From IMG/VR virus record IMGVR_UViG_2634166457_000015: 4,570 nt of DNA; one strand, written 5' to 3'. This DNA comes from a virus. Lineage: Duplodnaviria; Heunggongvirae; Uroviricota; Caudoviricetes. The translations under genes and the position numbers were made by a program. The notes under the pieces were generated by a model that did no database searches, was not told the DNA's origin, and saw only the letters and a program-made list of their open reading frames with translations. Shown in pieces: positions 2,089 to 4,570 of this stretch. Numbering within the stretch: the first letter of the stretch is position 1; each line of letters opens with the position of its first letter.

Positions 2089-2093
2089 AACAT

Positions 2094-2130
2094 AAAAAAT
2101 CCCGCAGTGCTCACGGACAGGAACTGCGGG
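2094..2130 (-). terminator. Intrinsic-terminator-like hairpin plus U-run, read on the minus strand
   Basis: CCCGCAGT (2101..2108) and ACTGCGGG (2123..2130) are exact reverse complements, giving an 8-bp stem with 6 G:C pairs and a 14-nt loop. On the minus-strand RNA the stem is followed by A-UUUUUU (plus-strand A-run 2094..2099). On the plus strand there is no U-run after it, so it is directional. The loop is longer than is typical for a terminator. Confidence 0.4.
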
Positions 2131-2190
2131 AGAGTTACGAAGATTAACTATAGAGAGTTATTCTTATGTCACGACAAAAAACATTAACGC
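2094..2190 (-). ncRNA. Candidate small RNA of about 95 nt, antisense to the late operon, in the I-J spacer (hypothetical)
   Basis: Bounded by the sigma70-like promoter at 2197..2224 (minus) and the hairpin/U-run at 2094..2130 (minus). It contains no ORF longer than a few codons. The region is AT-rich compared with the flanking genes. Sequence inference only. Confidence 0.2.
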
Positions 2191-2196
2191 AGAGAA

Positions 2197-2224
2197 ATTA
2201 TTAGCGCCACAGTCAGTGTGTGAA
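2197..2224 (-). promoter_or_regulatory. Candidate sigma70 promoter on the minus strand (-35 TTCACA, 16-nt spacer, -10 AATAAT)
   Basis: Read on the minus strand, TTCACA (plus 2224..2219) matches TTGACA at 5 of 6 positions and AATAAT (plus 2202..2197) matches TATAAT at 5 of 6, with a 16-nt spacer. The predicted start is near plus coordinate 2190, transcribing leftward. Found by eye and not scored. Confidence 0.25.
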
Positions 2225-2261
2225 AATGTGAAGATATTCAGAATTTTTATTCAGTCATGAT

Positions 2262-2295
2262 ACAGGCATCCTCCGGGATGCCTGTTGTTTTTGTG
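2262..2295 (+). terminator. Intrinsic-terminator-like hairpin plus U-run on the plus strand, 32 nt upstream of the J start
   Basis: ACAGGCATCC (2262..2271) and GGATGCCTGT (2276..2285) are exact reverse complements, giving a 10-bp stem with a 4-nt loop TCCG, followed directly by TGTTTTTGTG (2286..2295). This is the canonical rho-independent terminator shape. On the minus strand the hairpin is not followed by a U-run. Confidence 0.5.
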
Positions 2296-2314
2296 CGTAA
2301 CAGTTATCACAGTA

Positions 2315-2322
2315 AAGGGTGA
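2315..2322 (+). promoter_or_regulatory. Shine-Dalgarno-like element for J (AGGGTGAG)
   Basis: A purine-rich AAGGGTGAG ends 4 to 5 nt before the ATG at 2327. Confidence 0.5.
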
Positions 2323-2326
2323 GACA

Positions 2327-4570
2327 ATGGGCAAAGGTGGCGGCAAGGCGCACACGCCGGTAGAGGCAAAGGACAATCTTAAGTCCACGCAGATGATGAG
2401 CGTGATTGATGCCATTGGTGAAGGGCCGATTGAAGGTCCGGTGAAGGGGCTGCAGAGTATCCTGGTGAACAAAACCCCGCTGACGGACACGGACGGTAAT
2501 CCTGTGATACATGGTGTGACAGCGGTCTGGCGCGCCGGGGAGCAGGAGCAGACACCACCTGAAGGCTTTGAGTCCTCCGGGGCGGAAACCGCACTGGGCG
2601 TGGAAGTGACGAAGGCAAAGCCGGTGACGCGCACCATTACGTCCGCGAACATTGACCGCCTGCGGGTCACCTTCGGGGTGCAGTCACTGTTGGAGACCAC
2701 CTCAAAGGGCGACCGTAATCCCTCTTCTGTCCGACTGCTGATTCAGTTACAGCGTAACGGTAACTGGGTGACGGAAAAGGATGTCACCATTAACGGCAAG
2801 ACCACCTCGCAGTTTCTGGCGTCGGTGATTCTGGATAATCTGCCTCCCCGTCCTTTTAACATCCGGATGGTCCGGGAGACAGCGGACAGCACCTCGGACC
2901 AGCTGCAGAATAAGACGCTCTGGTCGTCATACACCGAAATCATCGATGTGAAACAGTGCTACCCGAACACGGCGATTGTGGGGCTGCAGGTGGATGCGGA
3001 GCAGTTTGGCGGTCAGCAGATGACGGTGAACTACCATATCCGCGGTCGCATCATCCAGGTACCGTCAAACTATGACCCGGAAAAACGCACGTACAGCGGC
3101 ATCTGGGACGGCAGCCTGAAACCGGCATACAGCAACAACCCGGCCTGGTGCCTGTGGGACATGCTGACTCACCCGCGCTACGGCATGGGAAAACGTCTGG
3201 GGGCGGCAGACGTGGACAAATGGGCGCTGTATGCCATTGCGCAGTACTGCGACCAGACGGTCCCGGATGGTTTCGGGGGCACAGAGCCGCGGATGACCTT
3301 TAATGCGTACCTGTCACAACAGCGTAAGGCGTGGGACGTTCTCAGTGATTTCTGCTCGGCGATGCGCTGTATGCCGGTATGGAACGGCCAGACGCTGACG
3401 TTCGTTCAGGACCGCCCGTCGGATGTGGTGTGGCCGTACACCAACTGCGATGTGGTGGTGGATGATAACGGCGTGGGGTTTCGCTACAGCTTCAGCGCCC
3501 TGAAGGACCGCCACACGGCGGTGGAGGTGAATTACACCGACCCGCAGAACGGCTGGCAGACCTCCACGGAACTGGTGGAAGACCCGGAAGCCATACTGCG
3601 CTACGGGCGCAACCTGCTGAAGATGGATGCGTTCGGTTGCACCAGTCGCGGTCAGGCCCACCGTGCCGGGCTGTGGGTGATAAAGACCGGACTGCTGGAA
3701 ACGCAGACGGTGGATTTCACGCTCGGGTCACAGGGGCTGCGTCACACACCCGGTGACATTATTGAAATCTGTGATAACGACTATGCCGGGACCATGACCG
3801 GCGGACGTATCCTGTCCATCGATGCCGCCAGCCGCACCCTGACACTGGACCGTGAGGTGACCCTGCCGGAGACAGGTACATCGACGGTGAACCTGATTAA
3901 CGGCAGCGGTAAGCCGGTGAGTGTGGACATCACCGCACACCCCGCGCCGGACCGGATACAGGTCAGTACCCTGCCGGATGGCGTGGCGACATACGGTGTG
4001 TGGGGACTCTCCCTGCCGTCACTGCGTCGTCGCCTGTTCCGCTGTGTTTCCATCCGGGAAAACACGGACGGCACCTTTGCCATCACGGCGGTGCAGCACG
4101 TACCGGAAAAAGAAGCCATCGTGGATAACGGGGCCAGCTTTGAGCCGCAGTCAGGCACCCTGAACAGCGTTATTCCACCGGCAGTGCAGCACCTCACGGT
4201 GGAGGTGAGCGCGGCTGACGGCCAGTATCTGGCACAGGCGAAATGGGACACGCCGCGGGTGGTGAAGGGGGTGCGCTTCAGTCTGCGACTGACCAGCGGA
4301 AGCGGAGAAGGCAGCCGTCTGGTGACCACCGCCATCACTGCGGATACAGAGCATCGTTTCAGTGGTCTGCCGCTCGGGGAATACACCCTGACAGTCAGGG
4401 CAATTAACAGTTATGGCCAGCAGGGCGAACCGGCCACCACCACGTTCAGGATTAATGCACCTGCGGTACCCGCCACGATTGAGCTGACACCGGGCTATTT
4501 TCAGATAACAGCGGTCCCGCGTCTTGCGGTGTATGACCCGACGGTACAGTTTGAGTTCTGGTTTTCGGAG
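2327..4570 (+). CDS. J: Host specificity protein J / central tail fibre (tip attachment protein), N-terminal 748 codons, truncated by the window edge
   Basis: ATG at 2327 opens a frame with no stop through base 4570 (2244 nt, exactly 748 codons). The translation begins [22 protein letters not shown] and contains [116 protein letters not shown] and [29 protein letters not shown], all recognisable as lambda gpJ from memory. It is missing from the ORF track only because it lacks an in-window stop. The C-terminal receptor-binding region lies outside the window. Confidence 0.95.

Follow-up and report, generated by a model that had tools for sequence, protein, structure and literature searches.

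The 238-bp spacer between the tail genes I and J in a 4,570-nt stretch of tailed-phage DNA (IMG/VR record IMGVR_UViG_2634166457_000015; the whole stretch is referred to here as the window) very probably contains a moron-type cassette for an Hfq-dependent small RNA (sRNA) of the PasB/EcOnc22-24 family, transcribed antisense to the tail operon, together with a separate plus-strand terminator ahead of J. PasB comes from enteropathogenic Escherichia coli (EPEC), and EcOnc22, EcOnc23 and EcOnc24 come from enterohaemorrhagic E. coli (EHEC). Homology links the spacer to the family, as do its position and strand, its terminator, its promoter motifs and the way in which it is conserved. We regard the window element as a further allele of a prophage sRNA family that is already known, though poorly understood, and not as a new type of element.

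Membership in the family was examined with a covariance model (R1) built from 18 alleles from viral contigs, in which the EPEC and Sakai types were included and the allele group of the window was left out. The model matched the window over its full length at 2190..2093 on the minus strand (72.3 bits, E 1.9e-12). This match falls between the end of I at 2088 and the start of J at 2327 and is antisense to the tail operon, as in the reference members. The same model found no match in phage lambda, and 80 unrelated loci with the same terminator stem, which served as decoys, scored at most 32.5 bits. A terminator-only pattern, AAAAATCCCGCAG..CTGCGGG, had also been run as a scan of genome contigs; it was too generic, picking up unrelated terminators from many phyla, and was retained for decoy use only. 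Among 80 viral contigs picked solely for a close relative of the J N-terminus, the sRNA was present just upstream of J, in antisense orientation, in 76 (57-111 bits).

An earlier note on this DNA, made from the letters alone, had proposed a moron or an sRNA locus in the spacer and had suggested looking it up in sRNA collections, without naming a prophage-encoded Hfq-dependent sRNA at this position. The look-up was fruitful in one of its two parts: Rfam gave no match on the whole window at E values up to 1, but PasB and EcOnc22-24 among the published prophage sRNAs did match, and these mapped Hfq-dependent sRNAs share the position of the window element, which supports the proposal. When the loci from EPEC and Sakai were searched at gathering thresholds, Rfam likewise reported only AgvB and STnc100, both in the control locus.

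PasB (E2348CN_0006) is an 83-nt RNA from the minus strand of prophage PP6 of EPEC O127:H6 E2348/69 (NC_011601.1 1466343..1466261), listed between E2348C_1436 and E2348C_1437 with the probe AATCCCGCAGTGATCGCGGAGCT (Pearl Mizrahi et al., Sci Adv 2021, PMC8550237, Table S6). In the EPEC genome, I ends at 1466255 and J begins at 1466496, which leaves an I-J spacer of 240 bp. PasB therefore lies in the I-J spacer, antisense to the tail genes, with its 3' end by the I stop codon. It is documented by RNA sequencing (RNA-seq) coverage, by Northern blotting and by interactions captured through ligation and sequencing of Hfq-bound RNA pairs (RIL-seq) (PMC8550237). In the EPEC RNA-seq data (DESeq2), the baseMean of pasB is 482, compared with 4.8 for I and 15 for J, and the log2 change of pasB in the hfq deletion is -6.8 under activating and -2.4 under non-activating conditions; PasB is reported to reach higher levels under the latter conditions. 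Its RIL-seq interactions number 37, and it is nearly always the second RNA in the chimeras, as expected of an sRNA.

The EHEC counterparts lead to the same place. EcOnc22 (prophage Sp15) and its homologues EcOnc23 (Sp14) and EcOnc24 (Sp11) were reported from EHEC O157:H7 Sakai (Tree et al., Mol Cell 2014, PMC4104026, Table S2), where EcOnc22 was detected by Hfq cross-linking and cDNA analysis (CRAC), measured ~85 nt on Northern blots and was destabilised in an hfq deletion (PMC4104026). In the Sakai genome, all three fall within I-J spacers and are encoded opposite to the tail genes. The probe used for EcOnc22/23/24 on Northern blots (GGGAGAGAACGATGAAGATTAAC...) has its match in the Sakai spacer on the tail-sense strand, at the equivalent of window 2126-2158, and the EcOnc RNA that it detected is therefore antisense to the tail operon. 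The coordinates in Table S2 run ~140 nt below those of NC_002695.2, as seen for AgvB1 (1941783-1941835 in the table vs 1941920-1941981 by Rfam), and once this shift is applied the Hfq peak of EcOnc22-24 lands on the sRNA body. Taken at face value, the tabulated coordinates would place the peak antisense to the plus-strand hairpin; this placement was rejected because the table refers to an older version of the Sakai sequence and the probe lies in the sRNA body.

Taken together, these results indicate that PasB (EPEC, 2021) and EcOnc22/23/24 (EHEC, 2014) are alleles of one family with one fixed position in the tail operon. We found no such link in the searchable literature: the note field for PasB in Table S6 lists no EHEC homologue (PMC8550237), and a 2026 survey that reported PasB in 24 phage genomes, with variants differing by a few nucleotides, contains no mention of any EcOnc RNA (Zhu, Shabalina and Storz, bioRxiv, 10.64898/2026.05.13.724894). 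The BLAST filter of that survey (>75% coverage of an 83-nt query) probably misses the window allele, which is ~70% identical to EPEC PasB and to Sakai EcOnc22, the latter two sharing ~74% identity. BLAST with the 83-nt PasB sequence thus understates the breadth of the family, which comprises at least three major alleles with ~70-75% identity among them, the window representing an uncharacterised third. Promoter and terminator are retained across the alleles, whose RNA bodies have diverged strongly.

The RNA predicted in the window, 97 nt from 2190 to 2094, folds at -22.4 kcal/mol (z = -2.67 vs shuffled controls). Its 3' end would be fixed by the terminator, and the -10 box suggests the G at 2190 as its 5' end. 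The terminator pairs CCCGCAGU (2130-2123) with ACUGCGGG (2108-2101) around a 14-nt loop, and the stem is followed by A and U6 (2099-2094). This is a GC-rich stem of 8-9 bp with a U-tract longer than the minimum of four set for the family, and its U-tail begins 6 nt past the stop codon of gene I. In this form it may serve as a 3' Hfq-binding module as well. The stem CCCGCAG/CTGCGGG and the A-run recur in nearly all alleles; the loop is variable.

From 5' to 3', the alleles share a layout of a conserved GCGUUA, a U-run, a variable linker, two motifs, a variable spacer and the invariant terminator stem. The two motifs are near-invariant: AAUAACUC(C) at 2162-2155, in place of which most other alleles have the anti-Shine-Dalgarno-like AAUAACUCC, and (G)UUAAUCUUC at 2148-2139, with a core, UAAUCUU, that hardly varies between alleles. 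Hfq-dependent sRNAs usually have an unstructured seed region upstream of an Hfq-binding terminator. Because the window RNA follows this layout, the two conserved motifs are candidate seeds.

The sole strong promoter-like site that the promoter scan placed near the spacer is on the minus strand and is directed at the minus-strand terminator. Its -10 box is conserved across alleles and is TATAAT in that of EPEC PasB; across variants it is ATTAT[TAC] in the plus-strand reading in most and TATCAT in another group. The -35 box is kept in EPEC-type and window-type alleles. The element thereby appears to possess its own sigma-70 promoter, as the family requires for autonomous transcription in the lysogen.

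The most conserved block of the spacer is the region upstream of the -35 box, where an AT-rich, UP-element-like segment contains a CRP-like palindrome, TGTGA-AGATAT-TCAGA, at 2227-2242 (with its flanks AAATGTGA-AGATAT-TCAGAATTT, also given as AAATGTGA-AGATAT-TCAGAATT, 2224-2245). It agrees with the consensus at 9/10 core positions and is the single match in the window to TGTGA-N6-TCACA with at most one mismatch; 0.14 such matches are expected per window, and 26 of 200 shuffles had at least one. Both half-sites are invariant in 66/66 surveyed spacers that have the promoter, with changes limited to the N6. In a CRP-dependent promoter the site was expected to be centred at -41.5, or else at -61.5 or, in helical phase, beyond it. 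In the window, 32.5 bp separate the centre of the site from the first base of the -10 box, so that it lies at ~-44.5, ~3 bp off the class II position. The hexamer TGTGAA also occurs twice in tandem here, at 2219-2224 and 2227-2232. The coordinates of all features are collected in Table 1.

Table 1 Features of the I-J junction in the window, with the evidence for each
Feature	Position	Strand	Evidence
Predicted sRNA, ~97 nt, PasB/EcOnc22-24 allele	2094..2190	-	Covariance model, EPEC/Sakai homology, fold
Rho-independent terminator of the sRNA	2094..2130	-	Terminator scan, folds
Conserved motif GUUAAUCUUC, candidate seed	2139..2148	-	Invariant columns of allele alignment, conservation profile
Second conserved motif AAUAACUC	2155..2162	-	Allele alignment, allele list
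-10 box AATAAT	2197..2202	-	Promoter scan, 10/12 matches
-35 box TTCACA	2219..2224	-	Promoter scan; 16-nt spacer to -10
AT-rich block upstream of -35, UP-element-like	2224..2250	.	Motif match, conservation in 66/66 spacers
Intrinsic-terminator-like hairpin, late-operon sense	2262..2295	+	Terminator scan, folds, conservation over 14 variants
Gene I stop codon TAA	2086..2088	+	ORF 1408-2088, Pfam Lambda_tail_I
J ribosome-binding region AAAGGGTGAG and ATG at 2327	2314..2329	+	Sequence, tblastn anchoring, Pfam J domains

We further compared the spacer with its surroundings. According to the list of open reading frames (ORFs), the window carries tail genes of the lambda type, namely L (63-761), K (767-1510) and I (1408-2088), followed by the first 748 codons of J, the start of which was located by tblastn anchoring of the J N-terminus. 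Pfam identifies I as Lambda_tail_I and also matches domains of J. L and K are separated by 5 nt and K and I overlap by 103 nt, in agreement with the tight packing that the earlier note had set against the 238-bp gap between I and J (2089-2326). RefSeq currently gives gene I of EPEC PP6 as 582 bp, beginning farther downstream and overlapping K by 4 nt; the longer gene I ORF with the 103-nt overlap is that of the older EPEC annotation and of lambda, and it is the longest ORF in the window. The spacer was also correctly described as AT-rich: its GC fraction is 0.399 (40%), with a minimum of 0.32 mid-spacer in the GC profile, compared with 0.585 for L, 0.583 for K, 0.606 for I and 0.598 for J (58-61%).

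The I-J gap of lambda measures 60 bp (lambda 15445-15504), which bears out the few tens of bp given in the earlier note, and comparison of the junctions (238 bp vs 60 bp) confirms the presence of extra DNA in the window. The window spacer has a promoter and a terminator, whereas the lambda gap has no match to the model. The extra DNA is a self-contained promoter-sRNA-terminator cassette and therefore fits the definition of a moron. Our terminator scan recovered both hairpins at the positions proposed before, 2094-2130 on the minus strand and 2262-2295 on the plus strand. Their description as convergent needs correction, as the terminators face outward, the one on the minus strand lying at the left end of the spacer and the one on the plus strand at its right end.

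The plus-strand hairpin has a 10-bp stem (2262-2271/2276-2285) with 6 GC pairs, a TCCG (UCCG) loop and a tail, TGTTTTTGTG, that extends to 2295 (also noted as UGUUUUUGUG), ending 31 nt before the J start codon. A GC-rich stem-loop followed by a U-rich tract is the form of an intrinsic terminator. The fold has a free energy of -20.5 kcal/mol (z = -3.81), and 0/200 shuffles were as good. Across 14 variants, 98.6% of the cells are paired, and one pair is compensatory, changing from U-A to C-G via U.G intermediates. In eight cells the pair is G.U, and an RNA from the minus strand would have a C.A mismatch there; therefore, selection on the plus-strand RNA is favoured.

Similar structures occur at this place in other junctions. 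The 60-bp spacer of lambda has a plus-strand GC-rich hairpin with a stable fold, AAACCGCC-TGCG-GGCGGTTTTGTCATTT, and a T-rich run after it, TTTTGTCATTT. A spacer class of ~342 bp has a T-tailed stem-loop on the plus strand, AAAACCCCGGTATC-TGCT-GATACCGGGGTTTCTCTTT, with -30.8 kcal/mol for a 59-nt segment. Plus-strand stem-loops with T-rich tails are thus found at the same place in three unrelated sequences (the window type, the 342-bp class and lambda), and this recurrence of the same form supports a shared role. We take the hairpin as a putative terminator in front of J, through which polymerase modified by Q would read.

To describe the variation at this junction, we grouped the spacers in the 76 J-selected loci having both I and J by length: 234-260 bp (44 loci, window-like), ~342 bp (22 loci) and 851 bp (9 loci). 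In the 342-bp class the sRNA and its promoter are the same up to about window position 2248, so that the AT-rich upstream block is kept, and the right part beyond this point is unrelated. The 851-bp class (9/76) carries a minus-strand gene for Cu/Zn superoxide dismutase, sodC (Pfam Sod_Cu, E 4e-32), that has a terminator of its own. There, sodC replaces the sRNA promoter, the plus-strand hairpin and everything rightward to J; the sRNA body and terminator are retained ~55 nt downstream of the sodC terminator, and the sRNA in this class is either promoterless or made by read-through. The sodC variant departs from the window type from ~2194, beside the predicted transcription start, and therefore gives an independent hint of a transcription-unit boundary near 2190.

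The spacer is also widespread in bacterial genomes and phage records. Of 5426 complete E. coli genomes, 1765 gave a match, which in 345 cases spanned most of the spacer, and distant blastn with the whole spacer retrieved 149 phage records, mostly of Stx1a, Stx2a and Stx2c converting phages. Identity over 2080-2345 is 100% in E. coli O55:H7 DEC5A and DEC5B and in FDAARGOS_946. Although very common in E. coli genomes and present in many Stx1a and Stx2c phages, the locus is unannotated in RefSeq and absent from Rfam.

Based on these features and on the characterised relatives, we propose how the cassette may work. The AT-rich block and the sigma-70 promoter (TTCACA at 2224-2219 and AATAAT at 2202-2197) would drive a minus-strand transcript of ~97 nt (~2190 to 2094) with a U-rich 5' part, in which the motifs AAUAACUC and GUUAAUCUUC would be largely unstructured and which would stop at the U6 of the Rho-independent terminator, 6 nt from the I stop codon. 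As in the characterised relatives, the lysogen would transcribe the sRNA from its own promoter with the tail genes silent, Hfq would stabilise the sRNA, and the sRNA would base-pair in trans with mRNAs of the host and of the accessory genome. Expression of this particular allele, and its dependence on Hfq, are likewise expected by analogy. On the other strand, the hairpin at 2262-2295 would stop Q-unmodified polymerase before J, and Q-modified polymerase would pass it in lytic growth.

Several observations weigh against this interpretation. The RNA of the window allele is a predicted one, and the allele is only ~70% identical to PasB and EcOnc22. Its predicted start at 2190 gives an RNA of 97-98 nt, compared with 83 nt for EPEC PasB and ~85 nt for EcOnc22; because 83-85 nt were reported for these relatives, the real or processed 5' end may be up to ~14 nt further in, which would place it anywhere from 2176 to 2190. 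Alleles of the Sakai type have a degenerate -35 box. RNAalifold on the alleles retains the terminator stem only, with no conserved structure in the sRNA body. No family member has an experimentally defined seed or target, and the target of EcOnc22 was given as unknown in a 2021 review. For the plus-strand hairpin, covariation is modest (26/500 shuffles reach it), and the terminator scan did not flag the hairpin in the lambda I-J gap despite its stable fold.

A different possibility is that the RNA acts mainly in cis, pairing with the late I-J mRNA of its own induced prophage or of a superinfecting phage with the same allele, which could lead to RNase III cleavage or altered J expression. Full complementarity to the I-J intercistronic segment indeed follows from the position of the gene, and a cis-antisense RNA would tolerate the strong divergence of the body between alleles, with promoter and terminator kept, because both strands change together. 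However, the two near-invariant motifs in the body of otherwise divergent alleles point to a constraint from trans targets, and EPEC PasB shows its 37 Hfq-mediated chimeric interactions while the tail genes are almost silent. We therefore consider a mainly cis-acting RNA unlikely, although cis and trans roles are compatible and do not exclude each other. It is even less probable that the spacer holds two back-to-back sRNAs, the second being a plus-strand RNA of ~60 nt that would start at ~2235 and end at the 2262-2295 terminator. Such an RNA would be consistent with the conserved plus-strand hairpin and U-run, with the wobbles that pair on the plus strand only, with a U-rich stretch before the hairpin as in Hfq-binding modules, and with an extended -10-like sequence, TGTGAAAAT, at 2219-2227. 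However, the promoter scan finds no plus-strand promoter in the spacer, TGTGAAAAT is not conserved in the Sakai-type spacer, the Sakai CRAC table has no tail-sense Hfq peak in these spacers (PMC4104026), no I or J locus tag is among the RIL-seq interaction entries listed, and lambda has a plus-strand hairpin here without any such cassette.

That the spacer is non-functional, whether as decayed coding sequence or as neutral, AT-rich filler whose hairpins arose by chance, is hardly credible. Rfam holds no family for it, and the three promoter-like sites in the window do not stand out from the 2.1 +/- 1.6 expected from shuffles. Against this, the ORF list of the window contains no ORF of at least 30 aa wholly within the spacer, and conservation is patterned, with promoter, motifs and terminator conserved while loops and linkers vary, so that the degraded coding sequence named as an alternative in the earlier note finds no support. 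In addition, the cassette recurs in the great majority of the J-selected loci and in many complete E. coli genomes (76/80 and 1765/5426, see above), and its homologues are detected Hfq-dependent RNAs by published Northern, CRAC and RIL-seq data. We thus favour the moron-type sRNA cassette with a separate plus-strand terminator.

A more far-reaching picture can be drawn, which we offer as a speculation that is rather doubtful as a whole. The I-J junction would be a recombination hot spot of exchangeable sRNA alleles, their bodies variable except for two short motifs and placed between a fixed, possibly cAMP-CRP-responsive promoter and a fixed terminator. The sRNA would act in trans via Hfq in the lysogen and also as an allele-specific antisense brake on the late I-J mRNA of its own or a superinfecting phage, and the plus-strand terminator would be general to lambda-like tail operons and reinvented at least three times. 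In practical terms, the recognition of one family bears on the annotation of pathogenic E. coli prophages and on the choice of alleles for target identification; the view of how such sRNAs act stays unchanged.

Among the closest known systems, PasB shares with the window element the I-J locus, the antisense orientation, the terminator abutting the I stop codon, the promoter layout, the motifs and the downstream plus-strand hairpin, and the window and EPEC spacers align over their whole length with 88% mean column identity. The RNA bodies differ, with ~70% identity, indels and a different terminator loop. EcOnc22-24 share the locus, the strand, the motif GUUAAUCUUC and the terminator stem; EcOnc22 differs in its ~70% identity to the window allele and in the degenerate -35 box of Sakai. 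The anti-sRNAs AgvB and AsxR (RF02702, RF02703) of EHEC lambdoid prophages are likewise short, Hfq-bound and transcribed from their own promoters in lysogens, and their alleles also combine a conserved 3' part with a variable remainder. In contrast to the window family, however, they lie downstream of PR' and the Q gene, outside the tail operon, and are unrelated in sequence: neither had an Rfam match in the window at E values up to 1, and AgvB was found only in the Sakai control locus and not in the I-J loci. The morons of lambdoid phages (Juhala et al. 2000) are extra DNA between genes that are adjacent in lambda, with their own promoter and terminator, and are expressed from the repressed prophage; the sodC insertion at the I-J junction is an example. 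The window element resembles them in this respect, but its cargo is an antisense non-coding RNA, unlike that of the protein-gene morons.

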